From NCBI GenBank assembly GCA_019308785.1, contig JAFDHL010000060.1:1-17175 (forward strand): a DNA stretch of 17,175 nucleotides, read 5' to 3'. This DNA comes from Deltaproteobacteria bacterium. Its GTDB lineage: Bacteria; Desulfobacterota; DSM-4660; Desulfatiglandales; Desulfatiglandaceae. The number at the start of each line of letters is the position of its first letter. Within the stretch, counting starts at the first letter, position 1. The notes beneath the pieces are model-generated. The model searched no databases. It had not been told where the DNA came from and worked only from the letters and a program-made list of their open reading frames with translations. Made by a program: the position numbers and the translations under genes. This document shows, piece after piece, positions 1,327-14,166 of this stretch.

Positions 1327-2322
1327 GTGATCATGAAAATTCCATTGATTAATAAAAATGATTTTTTTTCTTACCTCAAAGAACAAGGAAAGCCATGGCA
1401 AAATGACTATCTGAGCATGTACTCCAGTCAGTGGCACGGTATCACTACCGATCCGGACTTAATGGTTATTCCCATTGATGATCATCTGGTCCACAGGGGC
1501 GATGGCGTATTTGATGTGATTCGGTGTGTCAGAGGTAAAATGTACCAGATGGAGCAGCATCTTCAACGTCTCGAACGCTCGGCCAAGGCCATTTCACTTA
1601 ATCCGCCGCCTGAGTATGAAAGTATAAGAGAATTGATAAAACGCCTGGTTTCAATGGGAGGCGAAAAGGATTGCCTTATCAGAATCGTCTTATCCAGAGG
1701 ACCCGGAAGCTTCAGTACCAATCCCTTCGACTGCCCTTCCAGTCAAATATATCTGAATGTTATCCGTTTCAGGAGTCTACCAGGTACATATTACCAGGAC
1801 GGAGTCGCCCTTGTTACCAGCCATATTCCCATTAAAAAATCCTTTTTCGCCACGATTAAGTCATGCAATTACCTGCCTAATGTCCTGATTAAAATGGCGG
1901 CTATTGAGGCAAACGCCCAGTATGCTGTAGCTCTGGACGAGGATGGATTCCTTGCAGAAGGCTCCATTGAGAATATCTCTGTGTTAAACGCGGAAAAGAT
2001 TTTGAAATTCCCGGGATTTGAAAGGACCTTGTCTGGCATAACTGCCAATCGCGTTTTCCAATTGGCGGATAAACTTGTAAGGGAGAACATGATCAAGGAT
2101 GTGAAATTCGCCATGATATCACCCGAGGAGGCATATCAGGCCAGAGAAATATTTCTTACAGGTACTTCCGTAAATATAATTCCCGTCGTCAGCTACGATG
2201 GGAAACGCATCGGGGAGGGTTCCCCGGGGCCTGTTTATTCCAGGTTATCAACTCTCTTGTGGGAAGACATGACACAGAACCGGGAACTCCTGACCGAAAT
2301 TGATTGGGAACCGGGAAAATAA
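1327..2322 (+). CDS. Fold-type IV PLP aminotransferase (branched-chain/D-amino-acid aminotransferase family)
   Basis: Class IV hallmarks: HRGDGVFD near the N-terminus, a catalytic-lysine context (TIKSCNYLPNVL), and EGS..N and LTGTS motifs. The track start 1327 is GTG; ATG at 1333 (MKIPL) is an equally plausible start. Substrate cannot be assigned from sequence. Confidence 0.85.
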   Translation: MIMKIPLINKNDFFSYLKEQGKPWQNDYLSMYSSQWHGITTDPDLMVIPIDDHLVHRGDGVFDVIRCVRGKMYQMEQHLQRLERSAKAISLNPPPEYESIRELIKRLVSMGGEKDCLIRIVLSRGPGSFSTNPFDCPSSQIYLNVIRFRSLPGTYYQDGVALVTSHIPIKKSFFATIKSCNYLPNVLIKMAAIEANAQYAVALDEDGFLAEGSIENISVLNAEKILKFPGFERTLSGITANRVFQLADKLVRENMIKDVKFAMISPEEAYQAREIFLTGTSVNIIPVVSYDGKRIGEGSPGPVYSRLSTLLWEDMTQNRELLTEIDWEPGK

Positions 2323-2334
2323 GGAGGACAAGTC

Positions 2335-2541
2335 ATGGAACGTGTAGCAAGGATTTCAGAGATCATCGGTGCGTCGCCCGTCAGTTTTGATGAAGCCATC
2401 AGAGTTGGCTTTGAAAGGGCCAATCGGACCTTAAGAGGGATCACCGGACTGAAGGTCCTCGAGCAACGGGTGTCTGTTGAAGATGGCAAGATAGAGGAGT
2501 ATCGGGTAAGAATGGAAATCATTTTTGTGCTTGAAAGCTGA
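2335..2541 (+). CDS. Dodecin family flavin-binding protein (68 aa)
   Basis: The length and pattern match bacterial dodecins: ARISEIIGASPVSFDEAIRVGFERANRTLRGI...VEDGKIEEYRVRMEIIFVLE. A strong AGGAGG sits 6-12 nt upstream of the ATG. Confidence 0.8.
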   Translation: MERVARISEIIGASPVSFDEAIRVGFERANRTLRGITGLKVLEQRVSVEDGKIEEYRVRMEIIFVLES

Positions 2542-2559
2542 TGTGTGAATTCCGAAATT

Positions 2560-2763
2560 ATGGCTGAGATAATGTTCATAGAAGAGCGTTGTAAGGGTTG
2601 CGGTCTGTGTGTGACTGCATGTCCCAAAGACCTTTTGAGTGTAAGTTCCAAGATAAATCGCGCAGGGTACCCTGTGGCACAAATTGAAGACATGGACTCA
2701 TGCAATGGGTGTGCGCTATGTGCGGAGATGTGTCCGGACGTGGTGATTATGGTTTTTAAATGA
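2560..2763 (+). CDS. 2-oxoacid:ferredoxin oxidoreductase delta subunit (2x[4Fe-4S] ferredoxin)
   Basis: Two CxxCxxCxxxCP motifs (CKGCGLCVTACP and CNGCALCAEMCP) in a ~68-aa protein placed directly before the alpha/beta/gamma genes. The track start 2545 is GTG. ATG at 2560 (MAEIMFIEERCKGCG) fits the typical N-terminus. Confidence 0.85.
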   Translation: MAEIMFIEERCKGCGLCVTACPKDLLSVSSKINRAGYPVAQIEDMDSCNGCALCAEMCPDVVIMVFK

Positions 2764-2769
2764 TTATAT

Positions 2770-3044
2770 TTTTATACTCAGGTTATTTAGGCTGAAGGTC
2801 CCGCGAAACGCGGGATTAGTAAAGGCTATGAACATCGAACATCGAATCACGCTACAAGCGTGATCGAATTTTGAATAAGGTATTCTGCTAATTTATAAAC
2901 TGGCGGAGCGAAGTGATTTCATCATTCGATGTTCAAAAAACGGTTCTCTTTTCCCTTCCCGTCCTCCGTCCCGCTCAAGCGGGACTACGGAGGGTGGACA
3001 GTCTTCAGTCTAAACACCTTCAGCCTGACTACGTGAGTAGTCAC
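2770..3044 (+). mobile_element. MITE-like structured repeat, copy A (degenerate left end, perfect right end), inserted between korD and korA
   Basis: 130-nt core 2816-2945 matches 6781-6910 at 129/130. Right segment 2985-3044 matches 6974-7033 at 59/60. The right 27-nt terminal repeat 3018-3044 is intact. The left terminus (about 2773-2797) is degenerate and retains only AGGCTGAAG. Extra hairpin TCCCGCG-aaa-CGCGGGA at 2799-2815. Confidence 0.7.
2871..2899 (+). promoter_or_regulatory. Near-consensus sigma70 promoter inside repeat copy A, facing korA (TTGAAT - 17 nt - TATAAA)
   Basis: TTGAAT at 2871-2876, a 17-nt spacer, and TATAAA at 2894-2899. Identical sequence is present in copy B. Pattern match only. 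Confidence 0.4.
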
Positions 3045-3085: not shown

Positions 3086-4147
3086 TTGACAGAAACTGTG
3101 CTTGTCAAGGGAAATGAAGCCATAGCCATGGGGGCTATAGAGGCCGGATGTCGTTTCTATTTTGGATACCCCATCACCCCGCAAAACGAGATTCCGGAGT
3201 ATATGTCCAAACACCTCCCCGAGGTGGGCGGGACATTCATTCAAGCGGAAAGTGAGATTGCGTCCATAAACATGCTCCTGGGAGCGAGTGCCACAGGTTC
3301 CAGGGCAATGACCTCTTCCTCCAGTCCCGGGATTTCGTTAAAACAGGAAGGTATTTCATACTTATGCGGTAGCCAGATCCCCGGAGTCATCGTTAATATG
3401 AGCAGAAGCGGCCCGGGCTTAGGAGGCATTTCCCCCTCCCAGGGGGACTATTTCCAGGCAACCAGGGGGGGTGGCCACGGCGACTACCGTACAATAGTGC
3501 TCGCTCCTCATTCGGTTCAGGAGAACTATGATCTTACAATGAAAGCATTTGATCTATCTGATAAGTACAGGAATCCTGTCATGATATTAGGGGATGCCCT
3601 TTTAGGCCAAATAAAAGAGCCCCTAAAAATCCATAAATACAAAAAGAAAGAATTTTCAAAGGACTGGATCCTGACAGGAACAAAGGGAAGAGAACCCAGG
3701 CTGCTGAAGTCCCTTTACCTTTCCGAAGGAGAGCTTACGGAACATAACTGGATGTTATCCAAGAAATATCAGCGGATGAAGCGTTCGATTATGTTCGAGA
3801 CGCATTTCCTGGAGGGTTCAAAGCTCGTTGTTGTGGCCTTCGGTTCCGTGGCGAGAATCCTGAAGACATCCGTTCAGATGGTTAGAGACAGGGGTATGAA
3901 GGTAGGGCTGTTCCGTCCCATAACCCTTTTCCCCTTTCCCTATGACGCATTAGAAAGAATATCTCTCTCCATCAGGAACTTCATGGCAGTAGAATTGAAT
4001 ACGGGCCAGATGGTCGAAGACGTGAAATTGGCAGTTGGGCATAAAAAGAACCAGGTCGATTTTTACGGCCGGCCACCCGGTTCAATCCCGTCGCCTGACG
4101 AGCTTTTCAACGAGATAAAAAAGATTTATAAGAAAAGGATCGGATAA
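3086..4147 (+). CDS. 2-oxoacid:ferredoxin oxidoreductase alpha subunit (KorA/OorA-type)
   Basis: Typical N-terminus: KGNEAIAMGAIEAGCRFYFGYPITPQNEI. The 353-aa size fits the short KorA class. TTG start with AGGAGAG 5 nt upstream. Confidence 0.9.
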   Translation: MTETVLVKGNEAIAMGAIEAGCRFYFGYPITPQNEIPEYMSKHLPEVGGTFIQAESEIASINMLLGASATGSRAMTSSSSPGISLKQEGISYLCGSQIPGVIVNMSRSGPGLGGISPSQGDYFQATRGGGHGDYRTIVLAPHSVQENYDLTMKAFDLSDKYRNPVMILGDALLGQIKEPLKIHKYKKKEFSKDWILTGTKGREPRLLKSLYLSEGELTEHNWMLSKKYQRMKRSIMFETHFLEGSKLVVVAFGSVARILKTSVQMVRDRGMKVGLFRPITLFPFPYDALERISLSIRNFMAVELNTGQMVEDVKLAVGHKKNQVDFYGRPPGSIPSPDELFNEIKKIYKKRIG

Positions 4148-4888
4148 ATGAAACAGGTATTCAAAAGGCCGGAAGCCCTTATCGATGTTCCATTTCATTT
4201 CTGCCCCGGATGCCATCATGGAATCGTTCACAGACTGGTAGCCGAATGTATCGACAGGTACGGGCTGAGGGAAAAAACCATCGGCGTTGCTTCGGTGGGT
4301 TGTTCTGTCTTTCTCTATGACTATTTTTATGTGGATGTAGTGGAGGCACCCCACGGAAGGGCTGCTGCAGTGGCAACAGGGGTCAAAAGGGCCTGTCCAG
4401 AAAGCTTTGTATTTACCTACCAGGGGGACGGCGATCTGGCAGCCATAGGTACGGCGGAGATCATACATGCAGCAAATCGGGGCGAGCTCCTGACAGTGGT
4501 CTTCGTAAACAACGCCGTCTTTGGTATGACAGGGGGACAGATGGCACCAACGACCCTGGCCGGACAGGAGACAACAACCACTCCCTCCGGCCGGGAAACC
4601 GTAACTAACGGATTTCCCATTAAGATGGCTGAACTGCTTTCCGTACTTCCCGGAACCACCTTTGTTGCCAGGGCGGCAGTGAATAACCCCAAAAACCTTA
4701 TGAGGGCAAAAAAGCTGTTGAGAAAAGCGTTTGAAGTCCAGACAAACAACCAGGGATTCGGCTTTGTGGAGTTTCTTTCCGCCTGCCCGACCAACTGGAA
4801 AATGTCCCCGGATCAGGCCAACAAATGGGTTGCGGAGGAAATGATACCATACTTTCCCTTAGGCATCTTCAAAGGGGAGACTGTCTGA
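4148..4888 (+). CDS. 2-oxoacid:ferredoxin oxidoreductase beta subunit (TPP-binding, KorB/OorB-type)
   Basis: CPGCHHG cysteine motif and the TPP motif [11 protein letters not shown]...[11 protein letters not shown]. The ATG immediately follows the alpha-subunit TAA. Confidence 0.9.
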
Positions 4889-6186
4889 TGTATTTTGATT
4901 GTATCATAGCCGGGTTCGGTGGCCAGGGGGTTATGCTTATGGGCAATATCCTAACCTATGCCGCCATGGCTGAAAACAAGAAGGCCACATACATGCCCGT
5001 ATACGGAGTGGAAATGAGAGGTGGGACAGCCAACTGCACTGTAGTTATTTCCGATCGTGAAATCGGCTCCCCCATCATACAAAGGCCTCTGTCTGCCATT
5101 GTTATGAACCGCCCATCCTTAGAAAAATTCGGTCCCAGGGTCAGAAAAGGCGGCTTACTCTTTGTAAATTCCTCTTTGATCCCTGAAAAGGAGGTCAAAT
5201 TCAAGGGAATTGACTGTCTCATGATCCCAACCAGGGAACTGGCCTTGGAGGTGGGCAACGAAAGACTGGCCAACATGGTAATGCTGGGATTTGCCGTTAA
5301 GAAGAGTGGCATGGTTAAACTGGAAGCCTTGAAAAAGGCACTTTATCCAGCCCTTGACCCCAGATATCACAAGATGATAGACATAAACATACTGGCCATG
5401 GAGCGGGGTGCCCATTTTGTTGAGGATGGCAGAGTTAAAACCCGCGTTAACGGCTCAAAGGCCTCTAAAGACAGGGAACCTATTATGGAAGAAAAAAAGG
5501 ACGAGAAGACCGGAAAACACGCCTACGAAGATTTTTTAGCGGACGTAAGCGACCATTTTGCCAGTGGGGATCAAGAAAAGCAATTTATTGATAGCATCAG
5601 CCTTGAGCCCCCACAAGAGGATATCCAGGTTAACGTTGGAGTGCGTGTAAGAGAAGTAAGGGAAAACCGCGGCCTGAGTATTGAGGATATTTCCCAGAGG
5701 ACCGGTATCGCTGTTTCCCTTTTGGAGGAAATCGAGGATGAGGCTGTTGCGCCCCCACTGGGGACTGTGATAAAGCTGGCAAAGGCCCTTGAGATGAAAA
5801 TGGGTTTCTTTATCTCAGGAAAAGAAGACAGGCCTTTTACAATTGTTCGTGTGGATGATCGAAAAGTGATCTCCCGATATGATTCCAAGAAGGGGAAGCA
5901 TTACGGGTATGAATACGAGTCCCTTGCCCCCCACAAAAAAAACCGGCATATGGAACCCTTTCTGGTTACCCTTGAACCTGTGGATACCGAAGAAGAAAGA
6001 TCGACCCATGACGGACAGGAATTCATTTATGTGCTGGAGGGAAGCATGGAGGTCCGCCTGGGAGAGGAGATCCACATCCTTAAACCGGGCGATTCAATAT
6101 ATTATGATTCAACGGTACCACACCTTGTGAAGTGCCATGGGGATAAGAAGACGAAGATCCTGGCTGTCCTTTACGCTGAAAGGTAA
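4888..6186 (+). CDS. Fusion protein: 2-oxoacid:ferredoxin oxidoreductase gamma subunit (KorC-type) + XRE-family HTH + cupin domain
   Basis: ATG 4888 overlaps the korB stop (TGATG), with AAAGGGGAGA upstream. The gamma domain ([15 protein letters not shown]...) runs to about 5430. A charged linker follows. The HTH is at about 5635-5800 (VREVRENRGLSIEDISQRTGIAVSLLEEIE...PPLGTVIKLAKAL). The cupin is at about 5990-6130 (HDGQEFIYVLEGSMEVRLGEEIHILKPGDSIYY). There is no stop codon between the domains. The track extension back to 4825 lies inside korB and is not used. Confidence 0.8.
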   Translation: MYFDCIIAGFGGQGVMLMGNILTYAAMAENKKATYMPVYGVEMRGGTANCTVVISDREIGSPIIQRPLSAIVMNRPSLEKFGPRVRKGGLLFVNSSLIPEKEVKFKGIDCLMIPTRELALEVGNERLANMVMLGFAVKKSGMVKLEALKKALYPALDPRYHKMIDINILAMERGAHFVEDGRVKTRVNGSKASKDREPIMEEKKDEKTGKHAYEDFLADVSDHFASGDQEKQFIDSISLEPPQEDIQVNVGVRVREVRENRGLSIEDISQRTGIAVSLLEEIEDEAVAPPLGTVIKLAKALEMKMGFFISGKEDRPFTIVRVDDRKVISRYDSKKGKHYGYEYESLAPHKKNRHMEPFLVTLEPVDTEEERSTHDGQEFIYVLEGSMEVRLGEEIHILKPGDSIYYDSTVPHLVKCHGDKKTKILAVLYAER

Positions 6187-6225: not shown

Positions 6226-6654
6226 ATGATTGTATTTGATTTAGAGTGTTCACAGGGACATGTATTTGAAGGCTGGTTCGACAGCCTGGAGTCCTTTGAA
6301 CAACAAAATGTAAAAAACCTTGTTTGTTGCCCTTATTGCGATGATGCCAATATAAGGAGACTAATGTCACCTGTGGCTATTAAAAGATCGCATCCAGACA
6401 TCCGTAAACCACTAGATCCTATTGATTATCAGAGACTCGCAAGGGAAGTCGTCAACTATATCCAGGACAACTTCGAGGACGTAGGATCCAAATTCGCTGG
6501 AGAGGCCCTCAAAATTCACTACGGCGTATCCGAAAAAAGGAACATAAGGGGTTCAGCTACATCTGAAGAGGAAAAGAGTCTGAAAGAAGAAGGCATTGAA
6601 TTTTTCAAAGTCCCTGTGCCTAAAATAGATGATGACGCCGATAAGAAGAACTGA
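6226..6654 (+). CDS. DUF1178 family protein (zinc-ribbon-like N-terminus)
   Basis: N-terminus MIVFDLECSQGHVFEGWFDS...CCPYC and C-terminal block ALKIHYGVSEKRNIRGSATSEEEKSLKEEGIEF match the DUF1178 pattern as I recall it. Confidence 0.7.
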   Translation: MIVFDLECSQGHVFEGWFDSLESFEQQNVKNLVCCPYCDDANIRRLMSPVAIKRSHPDIRKPLDPIDYQRLAREVVNYIQDNFEDVGSKFAGEALKIHYGVSEKRNIRGSATSEEEKSLKEEGIEFFKVPVPKIDDDADKKN

Positions 6655-6749
6655 GAAATCCCATCTCCTTGTCCACCCTTTTGACCATTCTCCGAGTGCG
6701 GCACGGTTCTTTCTGCCCTTTCCGTCCCGCACATGACACAAGTTTTTTC

Positions 6750-7033
6750 GTGACTACTCACGTAGTCAGGCTGAAGACTGTTAGTAAAGGCTATGAACAT
6801 CGAACATCGAATCACGCTACAAGCGTGATCGAATTTTGAATAAGGTATTCTGCTAATTTATAAACTGGCGGAGCGAAGCGATTTCATCATTCGATGTTCA
6901 AAAAACGGTTTTTTTCCCCTTCCCGTCCTCCGTCCACCCTCCATAGCATTGCGGAGGACGGGCAGTAGCTTTGCTACGGAGGGTGGACAGTCTTCAGGCT
7001 AAACACCTTCAGCCTGACTACGTGAGTAGTCAC
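6750..7033 (+). mobile_element. MITE-like structured repeat, copy B (full length, perfect 27-bp terminal inverted repeats)
   Basis: Left TIR 6750-6776 (GTGACTACTCACGTAGTCAGGCTGAAG) is the exact reverse complement of right TIR 7007-7033. Each tip is itself a hairpin (GACTAC-tcac-GTAGTC). The core is almost identical to copy A. There is no coding capacity. Confidence 0.75.
6836..6864 (+). promoter_or_regulatory. Near-consensus sigma70 promoter inside repeat copy B, facing the purH-like gene (TTGAAT - 17 nt - TATAAA)
   Basis: Same sequence as 2871-2899. TTGAAT at 6836-6841 and TATAAA at 6859-6864. Confidence 0.4.
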
Positions 7034-7110
7034 GTTTTGTGTGCCCTGCCATGGTCTGCGTGGAAAAGTTCAAACCCCTTTATAAAAACACAGATTCAGG
7101 AGGTTATGAG

Positions 7111-7707
7111 ATGAGTAAGATCGAGAGGGCTATCATTAGCGTAACGGATAAGACAGGGAGTGTGGATTTTGCAAAATCGCTTTCCAAATTCAGGGTAGAG
7201 ATCCTTTCCACCGGAGGGACGGCCCGGATACTCCGCGACGGAGGAATCGAGGTGACCGACATTTCCGATTATACCGGGTTTCCTGAAATGATGGACGGCC
7301 GCGTAAAGACACTTCATCCAAAGGTACATGGTGGACTTTTGTGTATTAGGGACAACGCTGAACATGTCAAGATGATGAAGGAGCATGGAGTGAAACCCAT
7401 TGACATGGTGGTCGTTAACCTCTATCAGTTTGAAAAAGCGGTCTCCAAAGAGGGTGTAACCCTGGATGAAGCCATTGAAAATATCGATATCGGTGGTCCC
7501 TCCATGCTGCGATCCTCTGCCAAGAACTTCAAGTTTGTCACGGTCATTGTTGACCCTGCTGACTATGAGATCGTATTAAAAGAGATGGAAGAAACAGGCG
7601 GCGAGACAACATTGAAGACGAGATTTCGACTGGCGCGAAAGGTATTCGAACTGACCAATCAATACGACGGTGCCATTAGCCGGTATCTCGATAAGATCGA
7701 ACTTTAG
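7111..7707 (+). CDS. IMP cyclohydrolase (PurH N-terminal MGS-like domain only; AICAR transformylase domain absent)
   Basis: Strong match to the PurH N-terminus: [10 protein letters not shown]...STGGTA...[23 protein letters not shown]...VVVNLYQFE...[17 protein letters not shown]. The ORF stops about 198 aa in, right after the domain boundary ([10 protein letters not shown]). ATG 7111 has CAGGAGG 8 nt upstream. The track start 7039 lies just downstream of the repeat end (7033) and is unlikely. Confidence 0.85.
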
Positions 7708-12354: not shown

Positions 12355-12882
12355 ATGGAATTTTTAGAAAAACCATCCAAAGGTTTAGCAAAGATATTAT
12401 ATTGGGTAGCCGGCACTGCCATCGTCTCCATGATGCTCCTCACATGTGTCGATGTCATCCTTCGTTTAGGAGTAACCGCCTATCACCAATATCATTGGCG
12501 GTTTCTTTCTCCCTTCAGGCCAATTCCAGGAACATATGAACTGGTTTGCTTTCTGGGTGCGACAGCTGTCTCCTTTGCCATGGCCCATACCTCAGTGGAA
12601 AGGGGTCATGTAGCCGTAAGTATTATTGTTAACCTCCTTCCAAAAAAGGTCCAGTCCATTATTGAAACTATAACTACTATATTCGGACTTATCCTTTTTA
12701 TTTTACTTTCCTGGCAATCTGTTCTTTATGGCAATGACCTCAAGGCAAGCGGGGAGGTATCCCTGACCCTCGAGTTACCCTTTTACCCATTTGTGTATGG
12801 TATCGGGTTTGCCGCGGCTGCGGTTTGTCTTGTCCTGCTGGTGGACCTTTCCAAAAGCCTGCCCGAGGTGTTTCGCAAATGA
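12355..12882 (+). CDS. TRAP transporter small permease (DctQ-type)
   Basis: 175 aa with four hydrophobic segments, located immediately upstream of the DctM gene and overlapping it (ATGA). Confidence 0.8.
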   Translation: MEFLEKPSKGLAKILYWVAGTAIVSMMLLTCVDVILRLGVTAYHQYHWRFLSPFRPIPGTYELVCFLGATAVSFAMAHTSVERGHVAVSIIVNLLPKKVQSIIETITTIFGLILFILLSWQSVLYGNDLKASGEVSLTLELPFYPFVYGIGFAAAAVCLVLLVDLSKSLPEVFRK

Positions 12883-14166
12883 GCTTAACGGCAATAGGCA
12901 TAATCGGTATTATCATCCTGGTCATACTTCTGTTTTCCAAGATGCCGGTGGGCTTCGTAATGGGCTTCCTGGGTTTTCTTGGATTCAGCTATGTGGTCGC
13001 TCTTGGCCCAGGCCTTTGCCTTCTGGCAAGGGATGTTTTCGAAGTCTTTTCATCTTACGGTTTAACCGTTATCCCTCTTTTTGTCTTTATGGGCCAGATT
13101 GCCTTTCATTCCGGCATCAGCCGAAGGCTTTATGACTCTGCCTATGTACTGGTAGGAAATCGCAGGGGAGGACTTGCCATGGCCACTGTAGCTGCCTGTG
13201 CCGGTTTTTCAGCCATTTCAGGTTCTACAAATGCCACGGCCGCTACCATGGGCACTGTAACCATCCCTGAAATGAAACGATACAAGTACGACATGAGCCT
13301 GGCTACCGGCACGGTTGCTGCTGCCGGGAGTCTCGGTATTTTAATCCCGCCGAGCGTTATTTTTATAGTCTATGGGATCCTGACCGAACAGTCAATTGGC
13401 AAGCTTTTTGCCGCCGGCATTTTTCCCGGTATACTTCTTTCCTTCCTATTTTTATTGACCATCTATTTGCGTGTCCTGAAAAACCCTTCCCTGGCCCCGC
13501 CCGGACCCAAGACTACTTTCAGGGAGAAGATCAAGTCATTTGTGGGAGTCTTAGAGACCTTGATCCTGTTTGCAATGGTAATGGGCGGCATCTTTTTCGG
13601 CATCGGCCGCTGCAGCAGGTGCCTTCTTGACCATATTAATGGCTATTATCAGGAGACAACTAACCTGGCAGGGTTTTATCCAATCCCTGGCCGATACCAC
13701 CCGAATCAGTTGCATGGTTATGGTGATTGTGACCGGTGCCGTGATTTTTGGTCATTTTATGGCCGTTACCAGGTTGCCGTTTGACCTGGCAAACTGGGTA
13801 AGCACTCTTCCGTTACCGAGCTGGGCCATTATGGGCGTGATCATATTAGTATATCTTTTCGGGGGCTGCTTCATGGACGCCCTGGCCATGATTATGCTAA
13901 CGATTCCTATCTTCTTCCCGGTATCCCAGGCATTAGGATATGATCCAATCTGGTTTGGCGTGGTGATCGTACTGATTACGGAGATGGGTGTAATTACGCC
14001 GCCAGTGGGAGTCAATGTCTATGTTGTTCACGGCGTGGCCAAAGATGTGCCCTTAGAGGTCATATTTCGTGGAGTATTCCCCATGCTCATAGCCCTCCTA
14101 ATTTGCAACATAATCCTCCTGGTTTTCCCCCAGATTGCCCTGTTCTTACCCGGCCTCATGCGCTAA
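12879..14166 (+). pseudogene. TRAP transporter large permease (DctM-type), disrupted by a frameshifting deletion near 13605
   Basis: ORF 12825-13784 (real start ATG 12879, MSLTAIGIIG) reads as DctM up to MGGIFFGI and then becomes non-homologous. ORF 13627-14166, extended upstream in its own frame, reads AAAAGAFLTILMAIIRRQLTW and is DctM to the end. The family-conserved FTPTE segment between GGI..GI and AAA is missing. Confidence 0.7.

Follow-up and report, generated by a model that had tools for sequence, protein, structure and literature searches.

An oxidoreductase gamma subunit fused by stop-codon loss to an XRE-cupin regulator that probably keeps its own start signals

The stretch of DNA analysed in this work (the window, positions 1 to 17,175 of contig JAFDHL010000060.1, assembly GCA_019308785.1, from a Desulfatiglandaceae bacterium) contains a single 432-codon open reading frame (ORF) in which the gamma subunit of a four-subunit 2-oxoacid:ferredoxin oxidoreductase (OFOR) is joined in frame to a regulator made of an XRE-type helix-turn-helix (HTH) and a cupin barrel. 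The fusion arose by loss of the gamma stop codon in one small clade, and it seems reasonably probable that the locus now yields two products, the free regulator and a form of it tethered to gamma. According to this account the operon mRNA would be translated into the 432-residue tethered regulator, and an internal promoter, initiation at residue M200, or both would supply the free regulator of 233 residues. The free form would be a ligand-sensing dimeric repressor acting locally, by analogy with XRE-cupin proteins, and a tether of about 70 residues, predicted to be disordered, might allow the two modules on a dimeric enzyme complex to pair, either mutually or with free copies, so that a fraction of the regulator would be linked to the abundance of the enzyme.

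The ORF at 4888-6186 is free of stops over its 432 codons up to the terminal stop codon, and its ATG and the stop codon of the beta gene (4886-4888) overlap. When the translation was compared with Pfam, three parts were obtained in exactly the order that the original prediction, made from the DNA letters, had anticipated: the POR gamma family PF01558 (residues 11-175, E = 3e-35; 122.2 bits, the cut-off being 27.4; aligned to positions 1-172 of the 173 in the profile), then HTH_19, HTH_3 and HTH_31 (residues 251-305, E between 1e-7 and 7e-7; these models, like HTH_25 in the same residues, exceeded their gathering cut-offs), and finally Cupin_2, PF07883 (residues 359-427, E = 2e-18). Translation and Pfam together bore out the three-part architecture, whose components are as follows.

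4888-6186, forward strand: fused ORF, OFOR gamma, spacer and XRE-HTH/cupin regulator (translation, Pfam, same frame in 10 other loci)
4888-5436, forward strand: gamma (domain III) part, residues 1-183 (PF01558, termini of unfused gammas)
5437-5484, forward strand: spacer, residues 184-199, former gamma-regulator intergenic DNA that is now translated
5485-6186, forward strand: ancestral regulator gene, 233 codons plus stop, from M200 (start of free-standing homologues)
5485-5637, forward strand: residues 200-250, the extension at the N-terminus of the regulator, in which the motifs YEDFL and F-x-DSI are conserved
5638-5805, forward strand: XRE/lambda-repressor-type HTH, residues 251-306 (Pfam HTH models, confident model)
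5962-6168, forward strand: Cupin_2 barrel, residues 359-427 (PF07883, invariant columns, alignment with 1y9q)

The closest solved structures to the gamma part were the OFOR gamma subunits 3on3, 3g2e and 9bt4_E, and the regulator aligned over both of its domains with the HTH-cupin protein 1y9q (E = 2e-10), its nearest solved relative. In the family alignment the cupin residues H374, G376, E378, Y405 and H412 were invariant, and so were F216 and L217 of the N-terminal extension, with D215 almost so, free-standing members included. The AlphaFold2 model of the full fusion was weak (mean predicted local distance difference test, pLDDT, of 57), its gamma half being poor because of a shallow alignment; it was used only for the HTH (pLDDT 86-90), the cupin (70-88) and the low-confidence tether (25-32 for residues 177-247), in which two short helices, at 214-222 and 229-235, lie within the regulator extension. 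The segment of about 70 residues between gamma and the HTH is predicted to be a disordered tether. An acidic, lysine-rich linker of roughly 65 residues had been described at this place, but it is not a single linker: the new sequence is confined to residues 184-199 or so, and residues 200-250 are the conserved extension that all free-standing members of the family carry.

The same architecture was found in other assemblies. A search covering 5.8 billion proteins retrieved 14 protein clusters (P0001-P0014) that carry the three parts at 73-99% identity and come from JGI, ENA, Logan and NCBI. In addition, 160 related loci were fetched as DNA (80 from species genomes and 80 from metagenome contigs; 161 with the window), 10 of which keep the unbroken gamma-regulator frame of the window; with the window included they provide 9 distinct junction sequences. 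Spacer nucleotides differ by 27-54% between the deep fused lineages and no junction is broken. A missed stop or indel in the window, which would make these two ordinary neighbouring genes, was the objection raised along with the original prediction, and it was excluded because the same in-frame fusion recurs in assemblies from different samples and in the protein clusters; the probability of such an artefact is negligible and the explanation is effectively refuted. In its favour, the window does hold at least one frame-split gene, dctM (12825-13784 and 13627-14166), and P0100, which had looked like a distant fusion, was traced to an artefactual frameshift in an assembly rich in indels. The two overlapping ORFs of dctM, a TRAP transporter gene, match Pfam DctM at positions 1-231 and 247-413, and the frameshift between them is either a pseudogene or a sequencing error. 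P0100 (305 aa) was rejected as a second, independent fusion lineage: alpha and beta are fragmented on its contig, the true end of its gamma (AMERGEEFARTGK followed by a stop) lies in another frame, and the regulator is truncated, with a MarR gene next to it.

The comparison of orthologous loci proposed with the original prediction revealed both arrangements. Among the 161 loci, 11 were fused and 27 had a separate gamma, whereas in 92 the regulator directly follows a dodecin gene and the oxidoreductase is absent. In one further locus, L117 (P0024, 283 aa), all that precedes the regulator in frame is a 3' remnant of gamma, and this was read as the product of a deletion, not as a functional fusion. 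Unfused gammas end 4-7 residues past F177 and are followed by a gap of 9-119 nt and then by the regulator ATG, so that in the junction alignment the position of the spacer corresponds, in 17 distinct unfused junctions, to a stop plus 9-119 nt of intergenic DNA. Free-standing homologues of the regulator (237-260 aa) cover about 54% of the fused protein, including most of the alleged linker, and their start aligns with M200, the ATG at 5485. Since unfused relatives have a stop and intergenic DNA where the spacer sits, the fusion is a lineage-specific loss of the gamma stop codon through which 16 codons of former intergenic DNA became coding. In a neighbour-joining tree of concatenated alpha, beta and gamma, the fused loci formed one clade, sister to the unfused locus L028. 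In this clade the operon mRNA encodes a 432-residue gamma-regulator protein. The metagenome-assembled genomes (MAGs) involved are mostly named Desulfobacteraceae in the genome records. Three loci, L004 (DATKYC010000033.1), L026 and L029, present a Desulfobacteraceae-type cluster in MAGs labelled Acidobacteriota, Bacteroidales and Anaerolineales; their contigs are short and probably mis-binned.

Upstream of the regulator part, the 3' codons of gamma appear to hold a promoter of the regulator itself, and a putative ribosome-binding site precedes M200. The corresponding elements in the window are listed below.

5354-5383, forward strand: promoter-like element, TTGACC at 5354-5359, 18-nt spacer, TG at 5375-5376 and TAGACA at 5378-5383
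5365-5379, forward strand: inverted repeat TATCA-N5-TGATA over the promoter spacer and the -10, a weak candidate operator
5473-5478, forward strand: AGGGAA, similar to a Shine-Dalgarno (SD) sequence, 6 nt before the internal ATG at 5485

The promoter-like element falls within gamma codons 156-165, 131 nt upstream of the ATG at 5485, and transcription is predicted to start near 5390. The evidence for it is comparative throughout. CTTGACC was the commonest 7-mer of the dodecin-to-regulator gaps in loci lacking the OFOR (42 of 77), where it co-occurs with AAGATGATAGA, and in the window the same nucleotides encode A-L-D-P-R-Y-H-K-M-I-D near the end of gamma. All 11 fused loci have TTGACC at -131, and many unfused and OFOR-less ones have it at a similar distance. 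A position weight matrix from 38 non-redundant non-coding instances, anchored on TTGACC only, displayed TG at +21/22 in 32 of them and, at +24/25, the -10 bases T (in 30) and A (in 32), with a fixed spacing, an A/T-rich tract after the -10 and uninformative flanks. TTGACC-N18-TGnTA is the signature of a sigma-70 promoter with an extended -10 and an 18-nt spacer, which suggests promoter activity. Within gamma, the codons under the boxes presented a strong synonymous bias (CTT at L156 in 88% vs. 30% in the background, and ATA at I164 in 96% vs. 29%), and codons 155-166 were the lowest-entropy window of the whole gene. The copy in the window matches the -35 consensus at 5 of 6 positions (TTGACC) and that of the -10 at 3 of 6 (TAGACA), and the TG is present.

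Decayed 3' remnants of gamma were observed upstream of the regulator in several OFOR-less loci (L005, L006, L018, L039, L062, L067, L068, L010, L076 and L117). Evidently the delta-alpha-beta-gamma cassette was deleted there, possibly several times, and a tail of about 100-130 nt bearing the promoter-like element was kept. The promoter of the regulator would sit within the 3' part of the gamma coding sequence, and the gamma tail is apparently retained as non-coding DNA for the sake of that element. Remnants of this kind look like junk, and their promoter content bears on genome annotation and on the constraints upon operon deletions. Of the new insights, the more solid one is the embedded promoter, together with its persistence in the remnants of gamma.

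The internal ATG at 5485, with AGGGAA 6 nt upstream, is present as originally noted, and its proposed role as the source of a free regulator was backed by the start of the homologues and the upstream promoter-like element as well as by the ribosome site. Of 106 distinct loci, 88 have an ATG where M200 lies; the start is forced in 34 unfused loci, which contain an in-frame stop no more than 10 codons farther upstream. Across the 106 loci SD-like 4-mers peaked sharply at -12 of the regulator start. In 8 distinct fused genes the AGG codon (R196) at -12 and the ATG were invariant at all three positions, whereas neighbouring codons varied. Given that the promoter-like element, the SD-like sequence and the ancestral ATG have all been retained, the free 233-residue regulator is probably still made from the ATG at 5485.

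Selection on the fused form was evaluated from substitution rates and junction lengths. In the fused clade, across which the synonymous rate (dS) exceeded 1, the ratio of nonsynonymous to synonymous rates (dN/dS) was 0.06-0.10 for gamma, 0.02-0.19 for the regulator segments and 0.45-1.6 for the spacer, the nucleotide divergence of which was similar to that of gamma third positions. Both halves are therefore under purifying selection and the spacer is nearly neutral. The distance from F177 to the ATG was 69 nt in all 9 distinct fused junctions, with neither stops nor indels in the spacer, as compared to 15 different lengths (30-140 nt) in the 17 distinct unfused junctions and four different values within a single unfused subclade of roughly similar depth. 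A spacer conserved in frame and length, and not in sequence, is the pattern of a flexible interdomain tether. Because the spacer never gains stops or indels while unfused gaps vary widely, selection for the fusion is suggested, and maintenance of the fused frame by selection can be considered moderately supported.

Several points weigh against the account with two products. Both products are deduced from sequence. Ribosomes elongating on the operon mRNA could suppress internal initiation and leave the free form dependent on the putative internal promoter, and a simple sigma-70 scan of the window does not call the promoter-like element, TAGACA being a poor -10 without the final T. The inverted repeat TATCA-N5-TGATA has a single match in the window against 0.59 expected by chance, which is not significant; its covariation in the 38 non-coding instances was weak (2.58 of 7 pairs vs. 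a null of 2.22, permutation P = 0.011) and the control, a slide of 3 nt, failed (2.42), and for these reasons it is not claimed as an operator. The fused clade comprises only about four deep lineages, single-gene trees place locus L085 less securely, and the argument from indels compares clades of only roughly similar depth. A neutral simulation showed that four deep lineages would stay stop-free by chance with P of about 0.08-0.18, not significant on its own, and the stop-free spacer was rejected as a stand-alone proof of selection. Unselected read-through would equally give the near-neutral dN/dS of the spacer.

These last results suit a different explanation, in which chance removed the stop, the fusion protein is tolerated without having a role of its own, the gamma C-terminus accepts extensions, and the free regulator made from the internal signals does all the regulation. 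We regard it as unlikely. In its favour are a spacer dN/dS around 1, with divergence like that of gamma third positions, and the occurrence of other C-terminal fusions of gamma, such as the unrelated one with rubrerythrin in the gamma homologue P0175 (375 aa); domain III of single-chain PFORs, as is general knowledge of the family, also runs on into further domains. In another lineage the regulator itself is apparently fused to DUF1178, the product of its downstream neighbour (P0079, 388 aa, from an NCBI MAG, 6 member sequences), with the last strand of the cupin replaced, which suggests that fusions between these tightly packed genes arise readily. Against it, indels are absent from the 9 distinct fused junctions in contrast with the 15 lengths in 17 unfused ones, and there was no reversal to separate genes in the clade despite dS above 1. 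Many spacer codons, moreover, could become stops by a single change, and restoring a stop should be neutral if the by-product has no role.

The original prediction had suggested a trigger-enzyme-like arrangement. In this reading the tethered form would be the main one, the assembly or catalytic state of the enzyme or a 2-oxoacid or acyl-CoA sensed there by the cupin would gate access of the HTH to DNA, and the enzyme would thereby regulate its own operon. The maintenance of spacer frame and length across a clade with saturated dS, the purifying selection on both halves and the long tether, whose predicted disorder would permit contact with DNA, are all in agreement with it, as are the co-transcription of the regulator with the enzyme genes and the fact that XRE-cupin proteins regulate neighbouring metabolic genes. 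The conserved frame and length of the spacer are nevertheless the single hint that the fused form matters. Its premise, that this is the enzyme's own regulator, proved weak, since the 92 loci without any oxidoreductase keep an equally conserved regulator, cupin pocket residues included. The ligand and the targets of the regulator would then predate the fusion and be independent of it, and these loci argue that its sensing is autonomous of the enzyme. Moreover, the promoter-like element, SD-like sequence and ATG retained in the fusions argue that the free form is still needed, no further copy of the inverted repeat was found in the window, the region upstream of the operon included, and the fusion is confined to one small clade among 38 OFOR-containing loci. 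On balance a trigger enzyme of this kind appears quite improbable. Within the account with two products, a young system may also be envisaged in which tethered copies, built into the oxidoreductase complex, sequester free copies or pair with them, XRE-cupin proteins being active as dimers, so that repression would track the amount of enzyme in a trigger-enzyme-like feedback; this more specific version is, in our opinion, quite doubtful.

The gene order around the regulator is conserved: class-IV aminotransferase, dodecin, an optional OFOR cassette, the regulator, an optional insert of about 850 bp, DUF1178 and an IMP-cyclohydrolase-like gene. In the window, the neighbours outside the cassette that flank the regulator are the following.

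1327-2322, forward strand: class-IV (branched-chain-type) aminotransferase (Aminotran_4, E = 2e-41), found in most loci reaching far enough upstream
2335-2541, forward strand: dodecin (PF07311, E = 2e-22), upstream neighbour of the regulator when the OFOR is absent
6226-6654, forward strand: DUF1178 protein (PF06676, E = 3e-41), downstream neighbour of the regulator

The relevant region was visible in 74 of the first 80 loci; in 55 of these DUF1178 followed the regulator by no more than 400 nt, and in most of the others it lay farther downstream. The constant partners of the regulator are the aminotransferase, the dodecin and DUF1178, not the oxidoreductase. Together with the IMP-cyclohydrolase-like gene, the aminotransferase, dodecin, XRE-cupin regulator and DUF1178 make up a cluster that is conserved among Desulfobacteraceae- and Desulfatiglandales-like genomes and so far uncharacterised. 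In about one third of the related loci (e.g., L009, L013, L016, L020, L023, L036 and L047) the additional 850 nt or so between regulator and DUF1178 place the latter at about +1570 instead of about +720, implying a further gene that the window lacks. In the window, the IMP-cyclohydrolase-like gene at 7039-7707 encodes a stand-alone 222-aa protein, conserved in the cluster, that corresponds to PurH only in its N-terminal part, IMP-cyclohydrolase/MGS (positions 2-189 of the 511 in the profile). Downstream, a 228-aa ORF at 8344-9030 matches only the C-terminal third of the OYE/Oxidored_FMN family (positions 203-337 of a profile of 342), and its gene may have been truncated.

The regulator failed the PuuR model NF007408 (53.5 bits vs. 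an equivalog cut-off of 211), and the genomic context of the window contains no puu genes. The XRE-cupin proteins characterised so far act locally as dimeric repressors, occluding the promoters of metabolic genes next to their own (PMC7901475). By analogy, the regulator studied here would be a ligand-sensing, dimeric local repressor acting on its own promoter or on neighbouring genes. It shares with the transcription factors PuuR, PauR, PsdR and ErfA, and with 1y9q, the N-terminal XRE-type HTH, the C-terminal cupin and the metabolic genes nearby, and differs from them in the conserved extension of about 50 residues (YEDFL/FxDSI), predicted to be disordered, and, in this clade, in being covalently joined to an enzyme subunit.

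When 1.84 billion representatives were searched exhaustively with phmmer, no protein from outside the clade among the best 150 matches contained both halves; long gamma homologues carried other additions, such as the rubrerythrin of P0175, or nothing recognisable. No paper on an OFOR gamma fused to an HTH or a cupin was found in the literature searched, in which DUF1178 appeared essentially unstudied and searches on trigger enzymes returned nothing specific to a gamma-regulator fusion. As far as searched, the fusion is rare and uncatalogued, a simple stop loss in one small clade and not a widespread arrangement. The parts, an OFOR gamma and an XRE-cupin regulator, are ordinary; their combination was seen only in this clade among the proteins and papers searched.

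Trigger enzymes with a built-in DNA-binding domain, in the concept of Commichau and Stuelke, include PutA, BirA and NadR, which are ancient, family-wide fusions in which the ligand state of the enzyme gates DNA binding. The present protein resembles them in having an enzyme part and a DNA-binding domain in one polypeptide, encoded in the pathway's own cluster, but it results from a recent stop loss restricted to one clade, has a separate cupin sensor and retains independent expression signals for the regulator. Loci producing two isoforms through an internal start in one ORF, such as those of IF2 and ClpB, are similar in the in-frame internal start with its own SD sequence and in that the long and short forms would share the C-terminal part; here, in contrast, the short form is ancestral and the long one novel, and the short form apparently has its own promoter in the upstream coding sequence. 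Should the fused form have a function, this locus would offer a rare snapshot of the birth of a trigger-enzyme-like protein through the loss of one stop codon, with unfused sister lineages available for direct comparison. The practical impact is modest, the organisms being uncultured and the clade small.

The remaining OFOR genes of the window lie on the same strand directly upstream of gamma, and the same cassette was present in 38 related loci.

2545-2763, forward strand: OFOR delta, a 2x[4Fe-4S] ferredoxin (Fer4 families; PorD_KorD/OorD-like, below cut-offs)
3086-4147, forward strand: OFOR alpha, VorB subfamily (POR_N and PFOR_II; NF005507)
4148-4888, forward strand: OFOR beta, binding thiamine pyrophosphate (TPP_enzyme_C), with a stop that overlaps the gamma ATG

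The genes follow one another as delta, alpha, beta and gamma, their stops and starts overlapping or abutting, as is usual for four-subunit OFORs of the VOR/POR/KOR type; this operon departs from them in the 249-residue C-terminal addition to gamma and in an insertion between delta and alpha resembling a miniature inverted-repeat transposable element (MITE). The gamma had been named KorC in the original prediction, a label that did not hold: alpha passed the VorB subfamily model NF005507 (539.7 bits vs. a cut-off of 399) and failed the 2-oxoglutarate synthase alpha model NF007206 (257.7 vs. 579), and gamma failed OorC, NF006275 (51.8 vs. 216), and also its best generic gamma model, NF006323 (108.5 vs. 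235), so that no NCBIfam equivalog cut-off was reached by the gamma part. These scores point to a VOR-like OFOR rather than KorC, and the class-IV aminotransferase encoded upstream would fit branched-chain 2-oxoacid metabolism. In automatic annotation the 432-aa proteins are labelled simply "2-oxoglutarate ferredoxin oxidoreductase subunit gamma", a description that the present analysis corrects.

The MITE-like element, of about 290 nt, occurs twice in the window, at 6749-7034 and at about 2787-3044, the two copies being 95% identical over 144 and 65 nt, and has perfect terminal inverted repeats of 28 nt (CGTGACTACTCACGTAGTCAGGCTGAAG). One copy lies between DUF1178 and the purH-like gene and the other within the OFOR operon between delta and alpha, a gap that measures only 30-35 nt in the relatives L001 and L003. 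The right-end hairpin of the element, with its T-run, scores as terminator-like at 3026-3043.

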